NCBI GenBank assembly: GCA_037133435.1
Contig: JBAXOD010000002.1
Coordinates: 23,545 to 87,544 of the forward strand
From: Candidatus Moraniibacteriota bacterium
GTDB lineage: Bacteria; Patescibacteriota; Minisyncoccia; Moranbacterales; UBA1568
Direction of reading: 5' to 3'
DNA: 64,000 nt
In this document: one piece after another, positions 35,715 through 48,404 of the stretch
Position numbering within the stretch: the stretch's first letter is position 1
Layout of the letters: every line of letters begins with the position of its first letter
Notes under the pieces: model-generated
Told to the model about the DNA's origin: nothing
Database searches by the model: none
Seen by the model: only the letters and a program-made list of their open reading frames with translations
Translations under genes and position numbers: made by a program

Positions 35715-38312
35715 CTATCGCCTATACGCCGACCTCCGATCATCAGGCTCGGAAGCGGGAATCAGGGAAGAAACGAAACCGACCGAGAACAGGAGGAATG
35801 CCGAGGTCAGGATCATCCTGACGGCGAAGACGACGAACGGGGGCACGTATTTCGACACCGCTGCGAAAAATCGGTTCGATCCGGACGAGGCGACGGTCAG
35901 ATCCTCGTTCGCTATCGCTTGAACACGTACGTCACTTACGACCTTCGTTTCCGAGGAATCGATGACGTTGACTCCCCACAGATCTCGGAGTGCCACACGT
36001 TTCTCGTTCGCTTGGACGATTTTCCCCGTAAAGTTGACGAAGTTCGCGTCACCGATCGTGCCGGGTTTCGGAAGCGTATACGCTATCTGCATATCCGCGG
36101 ACTCGTCCACTGTTTTGCCGTCCACCGTCCAGACATGCGACAGCAGATACTTCTTCGCGTATCCCGGAATGATCGACGCCTTCATCGGTATGACGGTGCC
36201 GCTCGCGAACCGTTCGAAAATTTCGTCACTATGCTCGTCGTTCTTGGTACCGTCAAGTTCCGTAAACGTGCCGACGTATCGCGGCCAGACGGCACTCGTG
36301 TCGTTCGATTCGAGCAGGATTTCCGGATCGACGACCTGATAGTTCCGCGAAAGGGACAACGCCTTTCCCGTCGCTACATTCACCGCTTCCATCCGTACGG
36401 TGTACGTTTCTCCCGGCTCGCCCGTTACCGCGAAAAACGCGGTGTTCCCGAGCCCTCCCGAAGGACAGTCGACGGACGAGACGGTCGAGGAACAGTTCAG
36501 TGCGGCACCGTTTATGGTCCATCTGAAATTCTTCCACTCGGTAGAAGTCGCGTTGCGGAGCGTGACCCCGAGAATCTCGTTTTTCATGACGCGACACGAG
36601 ATACGGTTCAGGTTCTCCTTCGCTTCGGCCGCGGTGGAAGGCGTCGGATAGTACATGTCACAGATCGGATCAATCGAGGTGTCAAGCGCCACCTGTGCCG
36701 CGCCGGATGTGGACGCGGTCGCGGTGGTCGTATACGTGGAGATCTTCTTGTCCGTATTGGTGACTTTCACGACCACGTCGCTTTTCCCTTCGGGTCGGGC
36801 GATCATGTTCTGCGCAACCGTACTGCCGCCCGACGCCGTCGCGGTATAGGTGGTCGCGGAATAATTCTCTCCCGCCCGGGTCGTGATACGCATGTAGACC
36901 GGATCGGTATTCGCGAACGTACCAAGAATCTCCGGCTTCATATCAAGCAGCACTTTGATGGAAGTCAGGCCGTTCTGCGAGATCGCCTGGGTGGTGGAAT
37001 TCGGGAGCGTGATGAGCTTTCCAGCCGTGAGTAAACCCGCCGCCTCAAGCTGGGCCGTGACGTCCTTCCAGCCGTCGACCGGATTATTGCTCAGCTCGAC
37101 GGTCCACGAATAGGTGATTTCTTCGGGACTTTTGGATGAATTGTCGACCGAAGCCGTAGCAGTGACCATGTCCCCGCCGATTCCTTCCGTCTTGTCGTTC
37201 ACCGGATTATCCGGCGTCGCGGAAACGGAGAGCTCGAGTTTCTTGGAAGAACCGGATTCAGAATCCATCGGATCGACCAGGTTCATCTCGAGACAGTCAT
37301 CGATATCCCCTTTCGTCAGGCTGGTCGTCAAAAACGTGACCGGATACCCGTGTACCGTCTCTATATAGCTCCCAGGATTCTTGATGGGGCACTTCTTGTT
37401 CTTCGAGAATCCCCACTGGACCATCATCGTCGCGTCATCATGCTTCGTCGCGACCATCGACGATCCCTCCACGAGCACCCCGACTTTGTCTCCGGTCTGA
37501 TAGTTCCACTTGAAGGTATCCCGACCCAGGCCGACCGCGTTCGCCTCGTCCTTGTTGCCGTTACCGCTCGTATCCGGATCGTGCGGGTTGGTCCCCCATG
37601 CCTTCTCGTCCGACAGTCCGAATGTTCCGTCCGTTCCGCCGACCTGACTCCCGTTCAATTCCGGGAACAAGTGGACGCATGCCGGCAACTCATAAAAATG
37701 TCCGCTGACCGGATCGTGCATGTAGCACCAATCCTTCTTCGTATCGACGACGAGCTCCCCTCCGAAATGAGCCTTGTATCCGTCGTTATCATCGTCAGTG
37801 TCGTATTTGAATCCGTTACTGTCGGCATTGTCCGTAGCGAGGATTCGCGAAGCGGCGACTTTCCAATCATTGACGGTCACCGACCCGTCGTTGTCCGAAT
37901 CACAGTAACTCGCCTGACCGGAAGAACCGCCGAGTTCGCATCCGTTCCGCTTCAGATACCAGGTGTAATAAAGCTGTGACTCGCTGGCATTGGAAAAATA
38001 GGTCGGGAACGCCTTCGCGCTGAGTTTCTGCCCGTCCTTGGGATCCGAAGGGCTGAACGCAATCGTCACCTCGGGCGCGTTGCCCTTGTTTTCGGACACG
38101 TTGAACGACTCCCCGTATCTGCGTATGACCGCGGGGTCGAGATGATACCGCTGTTCAATGGCCGACGCTATCGAATCGGCACTCGGGAAATCCAAAGCGA
38201 CCACCTTTTCGGAAATGATGAAACCGGACAAGAAAATCACGAAAGCGACGGGAATCATTCGTCTTCCCGATTGTTTCCTCATTGGATGCATAGCGTTGAA
38301 TTTATTTTTCAT
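35715..38312 (-). CDS. Large secreted/surface protein (865 aa), Thr/Ser/Asp/Asn-rich, N-terminal signal-anchor
   Basis: Start MKNKFNAMHPMRKQSGRRMIPVAFVIFLSGFII; no catalytic motifs; composition of adhesin-like proteins. Confidence 0.5.
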   Translation of the reverse strand: MKNKFNAMHPMRKQSGRRMIPVAFVIFLSGFIISEKVVALDFPSADSIASAIEQRYHLDPAVIRRYGESFNVSENKGNAPEVTIAFSPSDPKDGQKLSAKAFPTYFSNASESQLYYTWYLKRNGCELGGSSGQASYCDSDNDGSVTVNDWKVAASRILATDNADSNGFKYDTDDDNDGYKAHFGGELVVDTKKDWCYMHDPVSGHFYELPACVHLFPELNGSQVGGTDGTFGLSDEKAWGTNPHDPDTSGNGNKDEANAVGLGRDTFKWNYQTGDKVGVLVEGSSMVATKHDDATMMVQWGFSKNKKCPIKNPGSYIETVHGYPVTFLTTSLTKGDIDDCLEMNLVDPMDSESGSSKKLELSVSATPDNPVNDKTEGIGGDMVTATASVDNSSKSPEEITYSWTVELSNNPVDGWKDVTAQLEAAGLLTAGKLITLPNSTTQAISQNGLTSIKVLLDMKPEILGTFANTDPVYMRITTRAGENYSATTYTATASGGSTVAQNMIARPEGKSDVVVKVTNTDKKISTYTTTATASTSGAAQVALDTSIDPICDMYYPTPSTAAEAKENLNRISCRVMKNEILGVTLRNATSTEWKNFRWTINGAALNCSSTVSSVDCPSGGLGNTAFFAVTGEPGETYTVRMEAVNVATGKALSLSRNYQVVDPEILLESNDTSAVWPRYVGTFTELDGTKNDEHSDEIFERFASGTVIPMKASIIPGYAKKYLLSHVWTVDGKTVDESADMQIAYTLPKPGTIGDANFVNFTGKIVQANEKRVALRDLWGVNVIDSSETKVVSDVRVQAIANEDLTVASSGSNRFFAAVSKYVPPFVVFAVRMILTSAFLLFSVGFVSSLIPASEPDDRRSAYRR

Positions 38313-38356
38313 CGTCCGTATGATAATGATTCCGATGGCACGTGAAACTGAAGACG

Positions 38357-39022
38357 TCACCTGCCAAAAACGAGAAACGCCACGTCGGCAAGAAACAGCG
38401 TCAGCCAGCCGGAAAACCAGGAATAATAGATCGAGCGGGTACGATGCGCGACGAACCCGGACGCGAATGCCGCAAGAATCATCGGCGTGCTGTTCCAACC
38501 GATACCGCCGAATGCCGCCAAAAACGCGACGAAAATTCCTCCTTGCAGAAAAACCGCGAGGATGCCGGTCTTGGACAACCACGAAAGCATGATGAGGCCG
38601 CGGAAAAACACCTCAAAGAGAACGGAGACGATACCGACCAGTACCACCTCATACAAAACGAAATAGAGGAACGAATCCTGAATGAAGTTTGGCAGCGAAT
38701 ACGTCACATCGGTCCCTCCGATAGCAATCACCGAGTACCAGACGACGAGAAACGGGATGACCGCGACCACGGCGGTCAGAAAACCGTATTTTTTCACGCT
38801 CCCCTGAAAACCGATCGATGAAAGCGGCTCTTTCTCAACGAAAATCACGTAGAGGATAGGGAGACACAGGAGAAAGACGATCCCCAACACGCCGGCCTGC
38901 AGGGATTCGTCCATATTCGCGTCGGCCGGAAACAAGCGAAATGCGAGAAGCGTCGCCACGACAAACAGTCCCGTCGAGAGGAACCGCTTCATATCGAAAG
39001 CCAGAATAGGAGTCTCACTCAT
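38357..39022 (-). CDS. CPBP family intramembrane metalloprotease (CAAX protease-like)
   Basis: EVFFRGLI motif (EExxxR), multiple TM, TATAAT 12 nt upstream of chosen start MSETPIL. Confidence 0.65.
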   Translation of the reverse strand: MSETPILAFDMKRFLSTGLFVVATLLAFRLFPADANMDESLQAGVLGIVFLLCLPILYVIFVEKEPLSSIGFQGSVKKYGFLTAVVAVIPFLVVWYSVIAIGGTDVTYSLPNFIQDSFLYFVLYEVVLVGIVSVLFEVFFRGLIMLSWLSKTGILAVFLQGGIFVAFLAAFGGIGWNSTPMILAAFASGFVAHRTRSIYYSWFSGWLTLFLADVAFLVFGR

Positions 39023-39076
39023 AGCATTGCTTCCATTATAACGTTTTTTTTCAATCTTGAAAATTTCTGACAAAAT

Positions 39077-40147
39077 TTAGGCGTTCTTGATCTTGTTCTT
39101 GATGCGACTCAGAAGAAACGCGACCAGAAATGACTGAAGCGGGAAGACGGCGATGATCGGGATGCTCTCGATTACCGCCACGATCACAATGACACCGATA
39201 CGCTTTGCTAGTAATATGATTTTCTCTTTCGGCGGCAGTTTCCTCGTATTCTTGTCAAGTGCTATGATGATGATCTGTCCGATAACGAACGGTCCCGAAA
39301 TGAGTGTGGTCACCCCCGGAAGAAAGAAATCGAAAAAATCGGTCAGGTCGTCGATGCCGCCGAGCATGTAAATCAATAATTTTGATGTAAACGACAAATC
39401 TGAGGCGTTCGGATCATGCTGTGCTGTTCCACTCCCCTGCACGGTCACGTTCCCCGTCTGCCCCGATTTGCGTTGCTCTTCCCAGGACGGGTATCGGGTC
39501 GGCCGTCCTCCCATGGCTTCCGATGATTCTTCCGCATCCTCCTCATCCGATTCAGTAGTCACCGAATTCGGAACAAAACGCAGATTATTTGGAGATTCGC
39601 TATATCGGACATTCCGCTGTTTCGGCCGGGCTGTCGTCGATGCGGCTGGTTTCCCCGAAGCGGAGTTCGAGAGCTGCAAACTGTAATTCTCACGTGCTCG
39701 TTTCGTTTCGATCGCAAGCCGTGTCGCGTCCGGATTTCGATCTTGTTCGAGTTCAAGCTCATCCCTTAAAAGTGCACCAAAAGATTGTACATTCATATTC
39801 TCAGGCCGGTTCGCAGTCAATTCCGCGGGCGTTTCCGAAGTGGCGATACGGCGCTGCAGACGAGTACTCTCAGTCGCTCGTTTCTCGAGCATCGCACGCT
39901 GAACAGCGGCTGATTCCCGGTCACTGTCGATCGCGTCCGCTGTCAAAAGAGCGTCGGCCGCTACGACCGTACGGGCGATATTTTGTCGTGCTCCCGCGGC
40001 CTCATTCATCCTCCGTGCACGCAGGCCCGCAAGCATGCCCGACATACGTGCCGCATTCCGTGCGTTAGGCGAAATCACGGTCCGATCCGAAGCCGGCAAG
40101 CGGGCACGACCGTCGGGAGCTCCTGTATTTGGATTCGAAGTACTCAT
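39077..40147 (-). CDS. Hypothetical protein: ~260-aa disordered polar N-region plus C-terminal TM pair
   Basis: 356-aa ORF, C-terminal FVIGQIIIIAL and IGVIVIVAVIESIPIIAVF helices. Confidence 0.45.
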   Translation of the reverse strand: MSTSNPNTGAPDGRARLPASDRTVISPNARNAARMSGMLAGLRARRMNEAAGARQNIARTVVAADALLTADAIDSDRESAAVQRAMLEKRATESTRLQRRIATSETPAELTANRPENMNVQSFGALLRDELELEQDRNPDATRLAIETKRARENYSLQLSNSASGKPAASTTARPKQRNVRYSESPNNLRFVPNSVTTESDEEDAEESSEAMGGRPTRYPSWEEQRKSGQTGNVTVQGSGTAQHDPNASDLSFTSKLLIYMLGGIDDLTDFFDFFLPGVTTLISGPFVIGQIIIIALDKNTRKLPPKEKIILLAKRIGVIVIVAVIESIPIIAVFPLQSFLVAFLLSRIKNKIKNA

Positions 40148-40432: not shown

Positions 40433-42769
40433 TCAATATCCCGCACCCGCGTCGAAATCGCGTTTGGCCTGTTCGATCTCAAGCAACTGCCGCGGATCCG
40501 TCGTAATGACCTGATCCTCGCTGTACGAAGCGATAACCTTGATCGCGACGTGTTTCGTCCCGGCGAAAAAGATTCCCTCTCCCACGTTCGATTCGAGCAA
40601 CAAGAACTTCTCGTGATCGGTCAGGTAAAAGAGATCCGCAATGAGATCAATCGAAGCCGGCGACTGTTTGAGGAGAAGCTGGATAGAGGAGTTTGTGACG
40701 ATCGGTTTACCGTAGCGTGACGCCATGAAATCGCCCACGTCCTGGGTGATGGTCGTCAGTCCCGCGAAGTACTTGCGGCACCGTTTCGCGATACCGAACA
40801 TGAATGCGGCGGCATCCTCGTTTTGCATCATGATCCACGCCTCGTCCACGACGATCAGCCGCTGTTTCATTTCCACGCGGATCTCGTTCCAGATGTACTG
40901 CAAGATGACGTACATCGCGATCGGCCGAAGCTCGCTCTCGAGGTCCCGGATATTGAAGACGATCATCTGCCGATTCAACGACACGTTTGTCTGGTGATTG
41001 AGGAACCCGCTGAAGACGCCCTCGGTATACTGTTCGAGCCGCGCCGCGAGCGATTCGGCACCTTCGACATTGCGAAGCACGGCATAGAGATCCGTCATGG
41101 TCGGGAACGATGCCGCGTCGAGAGAGCGGAAGTCCGACGATTCGGTGATGTCGCGGATGGCATATGTCTCGCGGATCGCACGGTCAAGGACGGAGTCCTC
41201 TTCCGGCGTCACCGCGCCGAGCATGAGGTGTAGCAATCCGATCAGGTTCGCGACATGACTGCGGAACACGCCCTGTTCATCTTCCGTCGCGGCGATTTTC
41301 GGAAGGTCGAACGGGTTCAGATGCGCGTCGGAGGCGAGCGAAATGTCGAGGAACGTCCCGCCGACCGTGTCGCACAGGTGCTTGTATTCCTGTTCCGGAT
41401 CGATGATGACGACGCTCGTCCCGAACATCATGGAACGCAGTATCTCGAGTTTGATGGTATAGCTTTTTCCGGCGCCGGATTTCGCGAAGACGACCATGTT
41501 GGCGTTTTCCATGCGGAACCGGTCGAACAGGACGAGCGAATTGTTGTGCCGGTTGATCCCGTAGAGTATCCCCTCGTTCGAGGACAAATCGGAAGACACG
41601 AACGGAAACGTGGTGGACAAGGGCGAGGTGTTCAGATTGTTCGCGATATCGAGCAGGTCCATGCCCAAAGGCCTCGTGGAGATGAATCCCTGATCCATCC
41701 GCAGCACGGCCTGCTTCGTGAAGACGAGCTGCGCCTCGAGTATGGACTCGATGTTTCTGGAAATGTCGTTGAGTGCCTTCTCATCGGCCGCATAGACGGT
41801 CATGTAGAGTCCGAATCGGAAGAATTTCTCCGTCCCCTGCTGCAGACGGTCGCGAAGATCCTGGATGTTCTCGAGTGCGGCTTCGAGCATAGGATCGCGG
41901 ACCTTGCCGCCTTCGGCCTCGATGCCGATCTGCGAACGGACGTGCGTCTCGGACGCACGCAACTCACGCATGATCTCACGCGTGTCGACCGGATGAATAA
42001 GGAAGCCGACGTCCATCGGGGCGTCGATATTCACGATCGGGGAAAACCAGTTCGTCCCGAGGTATTTCGGATACGCGATGACGAAATGCGTCCGCGCGAA
42101 CACGCTGCCGACATGGAAAAAGCTCGGTGACATGCGTATCGCCGGCGGTGCGATGAGATCCTTGAGACTCGCGACGCCCTTGCGATAGAGCTCTTCCGAT
42201 TCGGTGCTGCCATGTGAAGAAAATACGGAGGTCAAAAATCCGCCCTTGCCGCCGCCGGCCGATTTCTGCTTGGAGGAAGGCCGTTCGACCTCCGCCGAAT
42301 ACGGAATGACCTCCTCCTCGAAACCGGACGGGCGTGAGTAAGGTGCGGCTGATTCCGAACCAGGTGCGGGAATACGGGACGATTCCGCTTCGACAGCGGA
42401 AGGAAGAGGCTCTACCGTAACCGGCGGCGTATCAAAAGAACGCGCCGGCGCGGGTTCGGATGATGCCGGTTGCGACGACCACGAGGCATACGCGGGCGCC
42501 GCCGATTCCGCCACCGGGATCGGTGCGGGTACCGGAGTCGGTTGCACTGCGGGAGTGGCCGCGACCGGGGGCGTCGACACGACCGGAGCGTCGAAATACT
42601 TCGGCTCCGGCGCGGAAGCGGGAGTCGGGATCGGTGCTGGCGCGGGTGCGGCCGGAACGGGTGCCGGTCCCGAAGGAGATGCTGTACCGCCGCCGGCATC
42701 ACTTAATCCGAGCAGTTCCATGATGAGCGCTTTGCGCTGTTCCGGATCCAATTGTGCTGGTGTAGGCAT
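40433..42769 (-). CDS. VirB4/TrbE/CagE-family T4SS ATPase with ~180-aa Pro/Ala-rich N-terminal extension
   Basis: Walker A VVFAKSGAGKSYT, Walker B LIVVDEAW, CagE_TrbE_VirB N-domain block FHVGSVFARTHFVIAYPKYLGTNWFSPIVNIDAPMDVGFLIHP. Confidence 0.8.
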   Translation of the reverse strand: MPTPAQLDPEQRKALIMELLGLSDAGGGTASPSGPAPVPAAPAPAPIPTPASAPEPKYFDAPVVSTPPVAATPAVQPTPVPAPIPVAESAAPAYASWSSQPASSEPAPARSFDTPPVTVEPLPSAVEAESSRIPAPGSESAAPYSRPSGFEEEVIPYSAEVERPSSKQKSAGGGKGGFLTSVFSSHGSTESEELYRKGVASLKDLIAPPAIRMSPSFFHVGSVFARTHFVIAYPKYLGTNWFSPIVNIDAPMDVGFLIHPVDTREIMRELRASETHVRSQIGIEAEGGKVRDPMLEAALENIQDLRDRLQQGTEKFFRFGLYMTVYAADEKALNDISRNIESILEAQLVFTKQAVLRMDQGFISTRPLGMDLLDIANNLNTSPLSTTFPFVSSDLSSNEGILYGINRHNNSLVLFDRFRMENANMVVFAKSGAGKSYTIKLEILRSMMFGTSVVIIDPEQEYKHLCDTVGGTFLDISLASDAHLNPFDLPKIAATEDEQGVFRSHVANLIGLLHLMLGAVTPEEDSVLDRAIRETYAIRDITESSDFRSLDAASFPTMTDLYAVLRNVEGAESLAARLEQYTEGVFSGFLNHQTNVSLNRQMIVFNIRDLESELRPIAMYVILQYIWNEIRVEMKQRLIVVDEAWIMMQNEDAAAFMFGIAKRCRKYFAGLTTITQDVGDFMASRYGKPIVTNSSIQLLLKQSPASIDLIADLFYLTDHEKFLLLESNVGEGIFFAGTKHVAIKVIASYSEDQVITTDPRQLLEIEQAKRDFDAGAGY

Positions 42770-42773
42770 ATGT

Positions 42774-43460
42774 TTATCTTCCGGTCAGTTCCACCGACTC
42801 GATATTCTTGACCACCGACGACGTGAACAACGAAGGGTTGTACGAATTATACAAAAGCTCGATGACCTCTTCGGTACCCAAAAGCGTGGTCCGGACGCCG
42901 GTACCCATGAGTGCCGACGCGACCAGATCGGCGCGCTGGAACAGCTGGTTCTTGTACGTCTCGAACACCTCTCCGCCGATGAACGTCTGCTTGACCGGAT
43001 TGAATATGCCGCCCATCTTCGTGAAAAAACCGCCCTCTTTCGTCTCGGAAGGGGCGAACGGTACCACGACAAAGAACGATTTCGACATGATATTCGAGAC
43101 ATCGGTCAGACTCTTGATGAAATTCGCGTATTCCGAAATCTGGAACCGCAAAAGGTCATTCTCCTGGGTCTTTTCCTGTTGCTTGAGCTTCTCGAGATAC
43201 GGCTCGATGCGGAAACGGCGCGAGTGCACGATAATCTGGAGCGGAAAATCAAGCGAGTTGAGGAAATTCTGATACTGTATGATGATCGCATCCTGCTCGT
43301 CGGTCGATTTGAGGTCGAAGTTGATGGAAGACGCGAGCAGCACCGCCCGGATGGAGCCGTTGCGCAGTATCATGACGCCGTCGCGGACTTCCTCGACGTC
43401 CACGTACTTTTGTGTGCTCGCGGCGTCCGATTCCTTTTTGTTGTCGGTGATGCGTTCCAT
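42774..43460 (-). CDS. Hypothetical T4SS-associated protein; N-region resembles the extreme N-terminus of Gram-positive VirB4 (PrgJ/TcpF-type)
   Basis: DGVMILRNGSIRAVLLASSINFDLKSTDEQDAIIIQYQNFLNSLDFPLQIIV; 4-nt gap to VirB4 start. Confidence 0.4.
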   Translation of the reverse strand: MERITDNKKESDAASTQKYVDVEEVRDGVMILRNGSIRAVLLASSINFDLKSTDEQDAIIIQYQNFLNSLDFPLQIIVHSRRFRIEPYLEKLKQQEKTQENDLLRFQISEYANFIKSLTDVSNIMSKSFFVVVPFAPSETKEGGFFTKMGGIFNPVKQTFIGGEVFETYKNQLFQRADLVASALMGTGVRTTLLGTEEVIELLYNSYNPSLFTSSVVKNIESVELTGR

Positions 43461-43490: not shown

Positions 43491-43889
43491 CTATTTCCGG
43501 TCCACCGCCTCCGCTATGCGGCGTATCTCCGCTTCCGTGATCCTCCGCTCGGGCGCGACCGATCCGGTATCGATCTTTTTCGGAAGAGTCTTCTGTACTG
43601 GCTTCCCGAGCGGCCTTCGCCACATCATGACCTTCGGATTGAAGAGAAAAAAGAATCCGTAGATCACGAAAAGGAGGAGTGGCTGACCGTTCGGCCTGTA
43701 AAACGCGAGGAGACAGAAAATGATGATGATCGGTATGGAAACCAGGTAGATCGCGATGCCGTCACCGATGATGAACTTGGCGACCAGGATGGTCGTCCCC
43801 ATCCCGATCATCCACAAAAGTTGCTTCCCGGTGAGCGGTCCGGCGATCTTGTCTTCCACGTCGACAAATTGCGGTACGTTGAATATCAT
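43491..43889 (-). CDS. PrgI-family (VirB3-like) small membrane protein
   Basis: MIFNVPQFVDVEDKIAGPLTGKQLLWMIG N-terminus typical of PrgI; two TM helices. Confidence 0.6.
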   Translation of the reverse strand: MIFNVPQFVDVEDKIAGPLTGKQLLWMIGMGTTILVAKFIIGDGIAIYLVSIPIIIIFCLLAFYRPNGQPLLLFVIYGFFFLFNPKVMMWRRPLGKPVQKTLPKKIDTGSVAPERRITEAEIRRIAEAVDRK

Positions 43890-43946: not shown

Positions 43947-45812
43947 TCAGTTCCGAAGATCCACGACGCGACCCGGGTCGTCGTCTTCCGAAGCCACGAA
44001 CCCGTCTTCCGTATCGACGGGACGGATATAGTACGGGCCCGCTTTCGGTGCCTGATTCGGACGCGGGACATCCTGCGGCATCTGCCGATCCGATACGGGG
44101 GTCCGGACGATTTCGGTGTGGTACGGCTCGGTCGCTCGACCCTGCGCGAATGACGTCGCGGACGGCAACGCCACGGGCCGGGTCGTTTCGATGTCGTCAC
44201 GGATGGAATTTCGTTTCGAATAATCGATTTCGCCAGGCAACGAATGACCGGAAGAAAACGACATGCCGCCACTCCTTTCGGACACATGCGGGGAATGCGT
44301 GATCGGTTCCACGACATCATCATGCGCGCGCGTACCGATCGGAGCAGGAGCGGATGTGTCGATATCCTTGGATGCGACATCGCGGATACCGTCATTTTTC
44401 CAAAATGCCACCTTCGACGTATCCGGTTGGAAGGACGGGATCGCACCGGACGCGCGGAGCGGTGCGGGCTGCACCGGAGCGGGACCGATCGGCAGATCGC
44501 GCGGAGGGGCGGCAGTCGGTCGAGGTGCAAGAGCCGGTGCTACCGGTCGTGCGGGTGACACATATGGCCGTGAGACCGGCTCCTGAACAGGTTCCACATA
44601 TCGCGGAGCGGGAGCCTGTGAAGGCGGCGCGACCGGTCGTGCAGGCGGTACATACGGAGCCGGTGCCGGTGCTTGAATGGGTTCGGCAGAGTGTAACGCC
44701 GATGCAAAATGAGGTGCCTCGGTCTGAAATTCTTGATTCGATATATGAACCAATTCTTCTTTGGGTATCACATATTGAGATGCGGAAGCCGGAGCTGACG
44801 AGGGTAGCGAAACCGGTCGTACCGGTGGTACATACGGAGCCGGAGCTTGTGGCACTTGATACTGCGCGGGAGTTGGTTCCACATATCGCGACGCGGGAGC
44901 TGGCGCTGCAGTATGTTGTGCAGGCGTCGGCGGGACCGGTCGTGCCGGAGGCACGTACGGACGCGGTTCCGGTCTTTGTGCGACTGCTGCCGGTCGCGCT
45001 GGAAGCGATGCCGTACCGCGCCCGGACTCTTGGAAGGTCGGGAAGACGATCTCCATGGTTTCTGTATCGACGTCGAGCGCGACATTGTCCTCCACGGACC
45101 GGACAATCAGGTTGATCCTCTCCCGTTCTTCCGAAGAGAGTTTCTTGCCGTTCTCCGAATCGAACAGGAATTTGGCGCGAAGCATCGGATCGTGATATCC
45201 CACGCCGAGATCGTTGCGATACGCGCGGATCCAATTACCCAAACTCGGCCGGACCGTTTCCAACTGACCGTGGATATGGATACGCTCCGTCGAGAGTATC
45301 TGTTCGCTGAGTTTCGGATACTGGCTCACCGCCTGTAAAAGCGGGAGTGATACGGTCGCCCGCAGTGCCGCCTCGGACAGGTCTTCATCCTCGTCCTCAT
45401 CCTTTTCCAGAAGCCACGGTTCGAGTTCGAACACTTTTTTTCGCGCTTCCTCGAGTCCGATGACCGGTGCGGATTTTTTGGTCGCCCATTCGGCCCCGAG
45501 TGCGGCAGCATCGGTGAAGTACTCCGGGAAGCGCGAAAATATCCGCTGATTCACCTCGTATGCGATGCCGTATGCCACGCTCCGCTCGATGCCCGCCTCC
45601 CATCCGACTGTCGCCGGATAATCCGCAAGTGATATCTCGCGCACGAATATTCCCCCAAGCGGCCCGGTCACGGCCGGAATAGCCTCTTCCGGGAGTCCGT
45701 AGAGCATGCAGACCTCCTCGCAGAGGATACGCGGATCGTCCAGCATGAAAAAGTCATGCACAGGCGCCGGCAGCTGCTTCAGTTTTTTGAAAAAATCCTC
45801 CTGCATAATCAC
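43947..45812 (-). CDS. Protein with globular N-domain and Pro-rich repeat C-region (PAPYVPPARPV repeats)
   Basis: 621 aa; at least six YVxPxRPV-type repeats between aa ~290-500. Confidence 0.5.
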   Translation of the reverse strand: MIMQEDFFKKLKQLPAPVHDFFMLDDPRILCEEVCMLYGLPEEAIPAVTGPLGGIFVREISLADYPATVGWEAGIERSVAYGIAYEVNQRIFSRFPEYFTDAAALGAEWATKKSAPVIGLEEARKKVFELEPWLLEKDEDEDEDLSEAALRATVSLPLLQAVSQYPKLSEQILSTERIHIHGQLETVRPSLGNWIRAYRNDLGVGYHDPMLRAKFLFDSENGKKLSSEERERINLIVRSVEDNVALDVDTETMEIVFPTFQESGRGTASLPARPAAVAQRPEPRPYVPPARPVPPTPAQHTAAPAPASRYVEPTPAQYQVPQAPAPYVPPVRPVSLPSSAPASASQYVIPKEELVHISNQEFQTEAPHFASALHSAEPIQAPAPAPYVPPARPVAPPSQAPAPRYVEPVQEPVSRPYVSPARPVAPALAPRPTAAPPRDLPIGPAPVQPAPLRASGAIPSFQPDTSKVAFWKNDGIRDVASKDIDTSAPAPIGTRAHDDVVEPITHSPHVSERSGGMSFSSGHSLPGEIDYSKRNSIRDDIETTRPVALPSATSFAQGRATEPYHTEIVRTPVSDRQMPQDVPRPNQAPKAGPYYIRPVDTEDGFVASEDDDPGRVVDLRN

Positions 45813-45926: not shown

Positions 45927-48404
45927 TCAATTATTCTCTGGCACTCTATCTACCAAACCGAACCGATGATCTCTTCCCATTGACTTATGTGCCGATTCCG
46001 CTTCTTTTTTTAGGGCGACTGCAGCAAGGTTAGTTTTATCTACTTCAGCAGCCGCGAGCTCTATGATCTTATCAGTCGATTTATTTATTTTCGCTCCATC
46101 CTCAGCTAGTTTCGCAAGATTACTCACAGTTTTACTGGCTCCTCCATTCGCTAAAAGCATCGGCATAATGGCAGCCAAATTGTCCGGATTCTTACTGACT
46201 GCGTCGAGCGTCAAAGCATCGGCTTTCTTGTACACGGAATCTTGTACAGCTATATTGGTTTTGACACTATTATGGAATTCACCTTCTCGAGAGAAGTATG
46301 CCTGGTGTGCCGCAGTACGTTGCTTCTCGAGAATTTTCTTTTCTTGTGGCGAACCAGCGGCATCTATTTTCGCCTTAATATCCGGATCAAATTGCGCAAC
46401 AGCAGTATCAAGATTCTCGGAAATCTTCACCGACTTTTCCCCATCCTTACTCAGTTCGTCGAGGACAGTCTGATTGATCTTATTCGCAGTAAGACCGGCC
46501 GCAAGCACCTCTGAGGTCAATGCGTTCGCAGTCTGACTTTCGAACTTAACCCTGCCACTCTTGAGCACCTTTGTCATTTCTTTGACATCAGTACCGTACG
46601 CCGCCTTTAGGTTCACCTCGGCAACATTCGCCCTCGTCTCCTTCACGACAGCATTGTCCATACCGCCGCGATCCTTGAAGTGATCCTCGACTAACTTCAT
46701 ATCGGCATTCTCCATCTTGCCCTGCAGTTCGGGACGTTTCCGCATCTCATCCAATACCGCCGTCATATGAAGGCCGTCTTTTCTGCTCTTCGCTTCGGCA
46801 TGCTGCTTCTCAAGCTCTGAAATCGACGTATTGGAATTGATAGCCCTTCGTTTCGCCTCTTCCTTTACGAGTTCCTGTTCACGCGTAAGCGCGCCCGTAG
46901 CGGCCATTTTCCTGCCCGCCTCGGTTCTGAATCTTGACTGCGCCGCGTTCCTCTCGGAAACCAAGTTGCGATGCTGGCCGAACCGCGTCCCGACATTGTT
47001 CCTACTGAATCGGTCATCCTTGAGTTTCTTCCTCTCGCTCCGATAGGCATCCACGCGCTTCTTGCCAGCTGTGATACCGGTCACGAATTTCATCGCTCCC
47101 ATCGCATATTTCTTCACCGCATCCGCTCCATAAATACCCATCATGTTTCCGACACTCATCGCCGCCCATATCATGATAACAGGGATGATTGTTATCACCA
47201 TCGAGGTAATAAGGGATGTATTGTCCGCTGATGTCCTGATTCCGGAAGTTATCGTCGTAATTGTCGTAGCAGCCGAACCATTCTTAAAGTTCTTCAGAAA
47301 CGTAACAGCTACAAGGATCATGAGCATTGCGGCTGGACCAAAAAACGCATATTTCATGAAATAGTCCCACCATTGTTTAGAAAATCTCTCCAATCCGGGG
47401 ATGGCGGACGCCGCAAATCCAATCGGCGAAAATATCACCAAAAGCAAAAGGGCCACCAAACGGACCAGAAACAATGCGGCGAGCATCAATAGTGACGCAG
47501 CCAATAGAAAAGTGAACACGATTGCCTGAATAAGAAACCCGGTCGTTTTCCCCTCCCAAAGAGATGATTTTGCCGTCGATGGCAAGAGAAATTTCGAATA
47601 CCCGCTATTCCCCATCAGTTGTTCGAAGATATTAGTAGCACTCTGATTGCTTGGCCCCAAAATACTGTCGATGAAAAAGTACATCGGCACATTCGTCGCG
47701 TCCACGATAAATCGGGACACCGGGAAACTGAAGTTCACTAAGAGAGCCATCAAGACGAGCTGTAAGAGCCATTTTCTATAATTGTATGCCTGAATCTGAA
47801 ATATCGTCCCGAATGCAACGAACAAAAGCGTCAGTATGAAGAACAGGTTGAAAAAATCCCGAACCATTCCCCACATCGTATAGGTGGCCGACATATTGAA
47901 CAGTTCCAGCCATACTTTCGCATCCACCGCCCACGCGAAAATTACCGCGGCGAGACCATAGAGCAGGCTGATAAAGGCAAGGACCGCATATAAAATGATG
48001 TTCAAAGCGCCCAGAAAAATATTTGCTGACAAATTCCCAACCGCTGAAGCAGCCTCTGCCAACGGTTTCACGGAGAGTGTTTCCGCCGCGTTTATAACAG
48101 GATCCGTAGAAAGAGCCGCAGCAAACAAACCAAGCGGCGCAGTATCGTACGTATAGTTCGCGTAATTCTTGCTCTTACAATACGCCCGGCAAGCCTCACC
48201 GCTCGCTGTCGGTGCCGCCGGAGGACTGATTGTTTCTTGAACTGGATGAAGTACCGCGCCACTGCGGCAAAAGCATGATTCTCCGGCTGCATGTGCTGTT
48301 TTTGCAAACGAGAAAAATATCGCGCCGGAAAACACAAAACTCACCAAAAAAATGGCTGAGGATACCGAAAAAGAAATGTTCTTGATTTTTTTCACAACAG
48401 GCAA
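45927..48404 (-). CDS. VirB6/TrbL-like polytopic membrane protein with long charged coiled-coil C-terminal domain
   Basis: Signal peptide, ~7 TM in residues 120-430, then Lys/Glu-rich 350-aa tail; architecture only. Confidence 0.45.
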   Translation of the reverse strand: MPVVKKIKNISFSVSSAIFLVSFVFSGAIFFSFAKTAHAAGESCFCRSGAVLHPVQETISPPAAPTASGEACRAYCKSKNYANYTYDTAPLGLFAAALSTDPVINAAETLSVKPLAEAASAVGNLSANIFLGALNIILYAVLAFISLLYGLAAVIFAWAVDAKVWLELFNMSATYTMWGMVRDFFNLFFILTLLFVAFGTIFQIQAYNYRKWLLQLVLMALLVNFSFPVSRFIVDATNVPMYFFIDSILGPSNQSATNIFEQLMGNSGYSKFLLPSTAKSSLWEGKTTGFLIQAIVFTFLLAASLLMLAALFLVRLVALLLLVIFSPIGFAASAIPGLERFSKQWWDYFMKYAFFGPAAMLMILVAVTFLKNFKNGSAATTITTITSGIRTSADNTSLITSMVITIIPVIMIWAAMSVGNMMGIYGADAVKKYAMGAMKFVTGITAGKKRVDAYRSERKKLKDDRFSRNNVGTRFGQHRNLVSERNAAQSRFRTEAGRKMAATGALTREQELVKEEAKRRAINSNTSISELEKQHAEAKSRKDGLHMTAVLDEMRKRPELQGKMENADMKLVEDHFKDRGGMDNAVVKETRANVAEVNLKAAYGTDVKEMTKVLKSGRVKFESQTANALTSEVLAAGLTANKINQTVLDELSKDGEKSVKISENLDTAVAQFDPDIKAKIDAAGSPQEKKILEKQRTAAHQAYFSREGEFHNSVKTNIAVQDSVYKKADALTLDAVSKNPDNLAAIMPMLLANGGASKTVSNLAKLAEDGAKINKSTDKIIELAAAEVDKTNLAAVALKKEAESAHKSMGRDHRFGLVDRVPENN

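Follow-up and report, generated by a model that had tools for sequence, protein, structure and literature searches.

A probable two-polypeptide VirB4 motor, TrsD-like protein plus VirB4, with a Pro/Ala-rich junction segment in a Moranbacteria type IV secretion locus

[quoted passage not shown] Southlakia epibionticum a TrsD homologue is essential as well (PMC12102498, citing Wang et al. 2023). Among the type IV secretion components of Patescibacteria, TrsD is the most abundant and is usually encoded beside virB4 (1,664 of 2,272 homologues), those of Gracilibacteria being mostly not adjacent to it; the protein shows remote homology to the N-terminus of VirB4 (Quinonero-Coronel et al. 2025, PMC12102498). 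VirB4 is established to act on the cytoplasmic face of the membrane, and the role of its N-terminal domain is taken here from R388 VirB4 (PMC12857230). In pGO1/pSK41 of Staphylococcus aureus (MPF-FATA, pGO1 subclass), TrsD and TrsE (TraD and TraE) are separate proteins, in the order VirB3-like protein, TrsD of ~227 aa and a VirB4 without its first module. PrgJ of pCF10 and the CD1110 family is a single chain without a long linker. TrwK/VirB4 of R388 (PDB 7O41-7O43, 8RTB, 8RTD), 11-14% identical and from a diderm system, is likewise a single chain in which a junction linker is absent.

The window, a stretch of 64,000 nucleotides from a Candidatus Moraniibacteriota contig (JBAXOD010000002.1), encodes such a split pair. 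All coordinates are window positions, and all features described lie on the (-) strand. A gene for a 228-aa TrsD-like protein, putatively of the 'TraC-like' family PF26593 (42774..43460), is followed by a 778-aa virB4 gene (40433..42769), the product of which comprises an extension (residues 1-189) and a core. The motor is considered, with a probability of roughly 0.85, to consist of two polypeptides, a TrsD-like first module (N1) of the VirB4 N-terminal domain and a VirB4 carrying the second module (N2) and the ATPase, with a Pro/Ala-rich disordered linker that marks the old inter-module junction. The split itself is the published, normal state of Patescibacteria ('TrsD' plus VirB4), and the locus is an ordinary member of a known system. 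It shares with the described Patescibacteria T4SS (PMC12102498; PMC10633639) a chromosomal cluster made up of VirB4, a TrsD homologue, PrgI/VirB3 and a VirB6-like protein, together with a nearby cell-wall hydrolase, and nothing essential sets it apart. The gene content given for these systems (PMC12102498) was found here: chromosomal virB4, adjacent TrsD, VirB3/PrgI and a VirB6-like gene, with neither relaxase nor coupling protein (T4CP) families among the scanned ORFs, which were part of the ORFs of the window.

The VirB4 core (residues 190-778 plus stop; 40433..42202) comprises N2 (about residues 190-392) and a RecA-like ATPase domain (about 393-756). Walker A (AKSGAGKSYT, residues 429-438; 41456-41485) and Walker B (LIVVDEAW, residues 638-645; 40835-40858) motifs are present. 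The 778-aa protein matched NF045971 (CD1110 VirB4, PrgJ-type) with 358.3 bits (E 8e-107), above the 325-bit cutoff, over profile positions 176-734; the first ~175 positions are not covered by this polypeptide, and the profile is not spanned in full by a single chain. A Pfam P-loop_TraG match (E 1.4e-28) and a match of residues 393-756 to PDB 4AG5, the VirB4 C-terminal domain (E 2.6e-52), were also obtained. The conserved part begins at about residue 179-190. It aligns to PrgJ 199-751 (E 9e-45, 25% identical), so that 198 PrgJ residues precede the alignment start, and to pGO1 TrsE 36-617, TrsE starting about 35 residues ahead of the alignment with the window core. TrsE lacks the long disordered extension of the window VirB4.

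What is missing from the 778-aa protein was found in the 228-aa protein. The latter matched positions 3-118 of NF045971 (E 2.5e-6) and a fused Clostridium VirB4 (E 3e-10), and it contains the motif block RDGVMILRNGSIRAVLLASSINFDLKSTDEQDAIIIQYQNFLNSLDFPLQIIV, nearly invariant across 49 aligned homologues. The sequence-only reading had described it as the start of a PrgJ/TcpF-type VirB4. The CD1110 profile matched above includes PrgJ; in direct HMM/BLAST comparisons no meaningful match to the TcpF N-terminus was seen and the match to PrgJ was colinear and not significant (E 0.59). Homology to the first module of PrgJ/CD1110-type proteins is supported, and the 228-aa protein is not unrelated to VirB4 N-termini. 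Against NF041427 (TrsD/TraD) it scored 24.4 bits (E 2.1e-5), the curated cutoff being 200 bits; by profile score it is a remote TrsD/TraD relative that falls below the NCBI threshold for membership. The context of that family was present, namely a protein of ~200-230 aa between a VirB3-like gene and an N-terminally short VirB4, and the order PrgI-228aa-VirB4 is that of trsC-trsD-trsE in pGO1. A colinear match to pGO1 TrsD was given by a CPR HMM, although the two proteins are very remote (24 bits against the 200-bit family cutoff). A precomputed PF26593 match is carried by a 100%-identical database protein (P0001) and by all of the best 120 homologues. A PDB sequence search with the 228-aa protein returned nothing meaningful.

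Taken together, the two products add up to one full-length VirB4. Together they cover the CD1110 profile (3-118 and 176-734), and they map without overlap on one fused C. sporogenes VirB4 (residues 67-235 and 281-842), as the sequence-only reading had proposed in describing a first VirB4 module that was split off. Its further suggestion of an unusual domain rearrangement did not hold: TrsD plus VirB4 is the pGO1 arrangement and the majority state of Patescibacteria. A duplicated VirB4 N-terminus acting as an independent accessory paralogue with its own role would fit the Gracilibacteria homologues that lie mostly away from virB4 (PMC12102498), and the secondary-structure patterns of N1 and N2 are similar. 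It is nonetheless very improbable; nothing in the 778-aa protein corresponds to profile positions 1-175, PrgJ 1-198 or C. sporogenes 1-280, low-complexity sequence standing there instead, and fused homologues hold one N1, not two.

The gene junction was read directly from the sequence as ...GGA AGA TAA ACAT ATG CCT..., with a 4-nt spacer (ACAT, 42770..42773) separating the TAA that ends the TrsD-like gene from the virB4 ATG, in agreement with the coordinates and the 4-nt distance reported earlier. The virB4 ATG lies in another reading frame than the upstream gene. Because the stop codon is TAA, the split is not an artefact of UGA recoding, and an alternative genetic code or stop-codon readthrough was rejected on the stop and the frame. 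The spacer is identical (4 nt) in L011, a 96%-identical relative, and measures 9 nt in L004, 31 nt in L005 and 246 nt in L006, and this variability indicates that a conserved recoding signal is absent. A programmed frameshift joining both genes was rejected on this variation and on the absence of a slippery context.

The existence of fused forms in a related lineage, and two genes that lie only 4 nt and a frame change apart, might suggest that a fused virB4 was broken by misassembly, by a frameshift or by recent pseudogenisation. This explanation is effectively refuted. The same split boundary is repeated in L004, L005, L006 and L011, and pGO1 and Pontibacillus show the same split. Homologues of the 228-aa protein formed 3,405 clusters (2,250 at 50% identity), and the best 120 of these, which come from independent samples and sources, are without exception stand-alone, with lengths of 224-248 aa. 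Purifying selection is strong on both genes, pN/pS against L011 being 0.07 (TrsD-like gene) and 0.01 (VirB4 core). The closest homologues that have a source name came from Moranbacteria or other Patescibacteria, with the exception of one MAG labelled Candidatus Fimivivens. Of the 120 best homologues considered for the placement of VirB4, most have no source name, and the named ones are Moranbacteria/Moraniibacteriota MAGs.

The comparison of fused and split orthologues suggested in the sequence-only reading showed stand-alone proteins throughout the best 120 of the 3,405 clusters; a fused TrsD-linker-VirB4 form was seen in Berkelbacteria, in about 68 clusters, one source being the closed genome CP066695.1 (L012). 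In the fused proteins the linker stands between both modules, and the earlier wording that the first module was 'replaced' by a linker is therefore not retained. The junction segment is at the VirB4 N-terminus in the window, at the C-terminus of the TrsD-like protein in other lineages (a C-terminal tail was present in 37 of 150 TrsD-like representatives), and internal in the fused Berkelbacteria proteins. The best structural match of a fused-homologue model was full-length TrwK/VirB4 (E 9e-24), with linker residues 214-314 disordered (pLDDT below 50). The AF2 models were moderate (pLDDT 65 and 68, pTM 0.56 and 0.44), and at pTM 0.44 the domain packing of the fused model is unreliable.

In the proposed two-polypeptide motor, the TrsD-like protein would supply N1, the alpha/beta module with which the VirB4 N-terminal domain begins, and the 778-aa protein the second module (N2) with the ATPase domain. 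The gene order, PrgI(VirB3)-TrsD-VirB4, runs colinear with a VirB3-VirB4 polypeptide. Both pieces would reassemble non-covalently. By analogy with R388, N1 may be membrane-proximal, touch the VirB3-like protein and pair protomers, and it may anchor the ATPase ring beneath the VirB6-like channel. The linker would be disordered and weakly constrained, with the gene boundary placed on either side of it or absent.

Two further plasmid systems were compared. The Pontibacillus sp. ALD_SL1 megaplasmid (NZ_CP062975) has the same synteny, with a 779-aa membrane protein, a 116-aa protein, a 274-aa TrsD-like protein and a 621-aa VirB4, and it is much closer to the window than pGO1 or PrgJ (identity 34% for VirB4 and 28% for the TrsD-like protein). 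Its 116-aa protein occupies the PrgI/VirB3 position with only a weak, sub-threshold TraL match. The TrsD-like protein there has an N-terminal hydrophobic, probably transmembrane segment, the genes overlap and a long linker is absent. In a Halarchaeum plasmid cluster the N1 module is located at the start of a 537-aa protein. pGO1 is a conjugative plasmid equipped with a relaxase and a coupling protein; the window locus lies on the chromosome, and the scanned ORFs contain neither.

The extension (residues 1-189; 42203..42769) is a Pro/Ala/Ser-rich, hypervariable and presumably disordered junction linker. Its composition (P 20%, A 16%, S 14%) differs from that of the core (P 3%, A 8%), bearing out the Pro/Ala-rich N-terminus of ~180 aa that had been noticed from the sequence. 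No tandem repeats were found in 42203-42769 as the origin of this stretch. Compared with L011, pN/pS was 0.53 in the extension and 0.01 in the core, without indels; the extension evolves about 50 times faster than the core. Identity to L004 was 23% in the extension and 91% in the core. Extension length ranged from 15-440 aa across 120 homologues and came to no more than 33 aa in L005, a relative from the Moranbacteria that shares the eight-gene operon.

On a rival reading the segment is never translated: the true VirB4 start would be a GTG/TTG inside the ORF, close to residue 170-190, and the open frame ahead of it a GC-rich accident, a view in keeping with the weak constraint, with the short L005 extension and with the NCBI annotation, which starts virB4 after the low-complexity region in L004 (609 aa instead of 768 aa) and L012 (582 aa instead of 906 aa). 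We regard it as unlikely. The frame is stop-free over 189 codons here (p about 1e-3 at local GC, estimated from base composition) and stays equally open over 179 codons in L004, where identity is only 23%; the VirB4 ORFs of the window and L004 begin 4-9 nt past the stop of the preceding gene. Relative to L011, changes are most frequent at third codon positions (26, with 14 and 14 at the other two) and include no indels, and a W-containing motif is conserved within the extension. The Berkelbacteria junction segment, moreover, must be translated since it links two conserved domains in one ORF, which counts further against an untranslated extension. The extension is probably translated.

The conserved motif is APAYASW (residues 91-97; 42479..42499), with the pattern P.Y[SGA][SGA]W. 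This pattern occurred in 19 of the 65 extensions that measure 75 aa or more and in none of the cores, and 18 of the 21 Trp residues in those extensions fell inside it (shuffle expectation 0.05). Its carriers form one clade, and the occurrences are therefore not independent. A basic-hydrophobic mini-motif, GGKGGFLTSVF (residues 173-183; 42221..42253), precedes the core; in alignment it falls opposite KKxL.EIL.R(L/F)G(L/I) in the fused proteins, it is similar to N-terminal KKSLFGWLGFGKK or MGFFG motifs of homologues, and its counterpart in the fused-homologue model is a low-confidence helix. RKALIMELLGL (residues 12-22; 42704-42736) is possibly related to it.

The extension is most likely a tolerated flexible tail, although APAYASW and KGGFLTSVF may help to dock partners. 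A stronger version, in which the junction segment is a functional tether whose lineage-specific motifs (P.Y[GS][AS]W; KK.LFG.LGF-type near the core) dock a detachable ATPase on a TrsD/PrgI membrane platform or on substrates, is speculative and rather doubtful. If true, the secretion motor of CPR would assemble reversibly and under regulation, as a 'split and tethered' machine, and the alternation of fused, N-tailed and C-tailed forms would reflect assembly tuning. The earlier idea that, through the linker, the motor is adapted to a thick or unusual envelope is highly improbable. Patescibacteria envelopes are indeed unusual, and nothing further in its favour was found. VirB4 is cytoplasmic, and an envelope adaptation by way of the linker is therefore unsupported; no obvious hydrophobic or transmembrane stretch was seen in the extension by eye, its sequence is nearly free to vary, and among close relatives with the same operon its length varies over the 15-440 aa given above, L005 having 33 aa.

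A disordered segment exactly at the TrsD/VirB4 junction, 15-440 aa long, fast-evolving and switching sides between lineages, may be new. An N1-less CPR VirB4, a disordered junction segment and a fused Berkelbacteria form are unmentioned in PMC12102498 and in Wang et al. 2023 (PMC10633639), and PMC12102498 nowhere uses the words split, truncat-, linker, disorder or proline. Recognition of TrsD as the detached N1 of VirB4 helps structural modelling of the Patescibacteria T4SS. It also bears on annotation: the late NCBI start of virB4 in the two checked relatives (L004, L012) falls past the low-complexity stretch, and L012, the closed genome from Berkelbacteria, has no annotation over its N1 module. 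Apart from modelling and annotation, nothing fundamental is changed by the finding.

Immediately upstream of the TrsD-like gene is a 132-aa PrgI family (VirB3-like) membrane protein (43491..43889; PF12666, E 7.9e-8, 33.2 bits, cutoff 27), its position being kept in L004, L005, L006, L007 and L011. An 825-aa polytopic membrane protein (45927..48404) is a VirB6/TrbL-like candidate by orthology to a 663-aa protein of L005 (33% identity, E 4e-75), which carries a precomputed PF19590 TrbL_3 match; the 825-aa protein itself has no direct Pfam match. Three downstream operon genes (356, 238 and 955 aa; 35715..40147) were assigned by BLASTP synteny, the 238-aa and 955-aa genes having orthologues in L004 and L005 and the 356-aa gene being matched in L004 only. 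The 238-aa protein showed a weak CPBP-protease-like match (E 2e-4), well below the curated cutoff, and NCBIfam matches were absent for the operon proteins of 191, 356 and 955 aa. Genes on either flank code for CCA-adding enzyme, IF-2, a XerC-like recombinase, LysM-CHAP and UvrD. A 621-aa operon protein (43947..45812), for which no Pfam or NCBIfam family match was obtained, has a Pro-rich insert of its own at residues about 274-463, and its orthologues measure 477 aa in L004 and 358 aa in L005.

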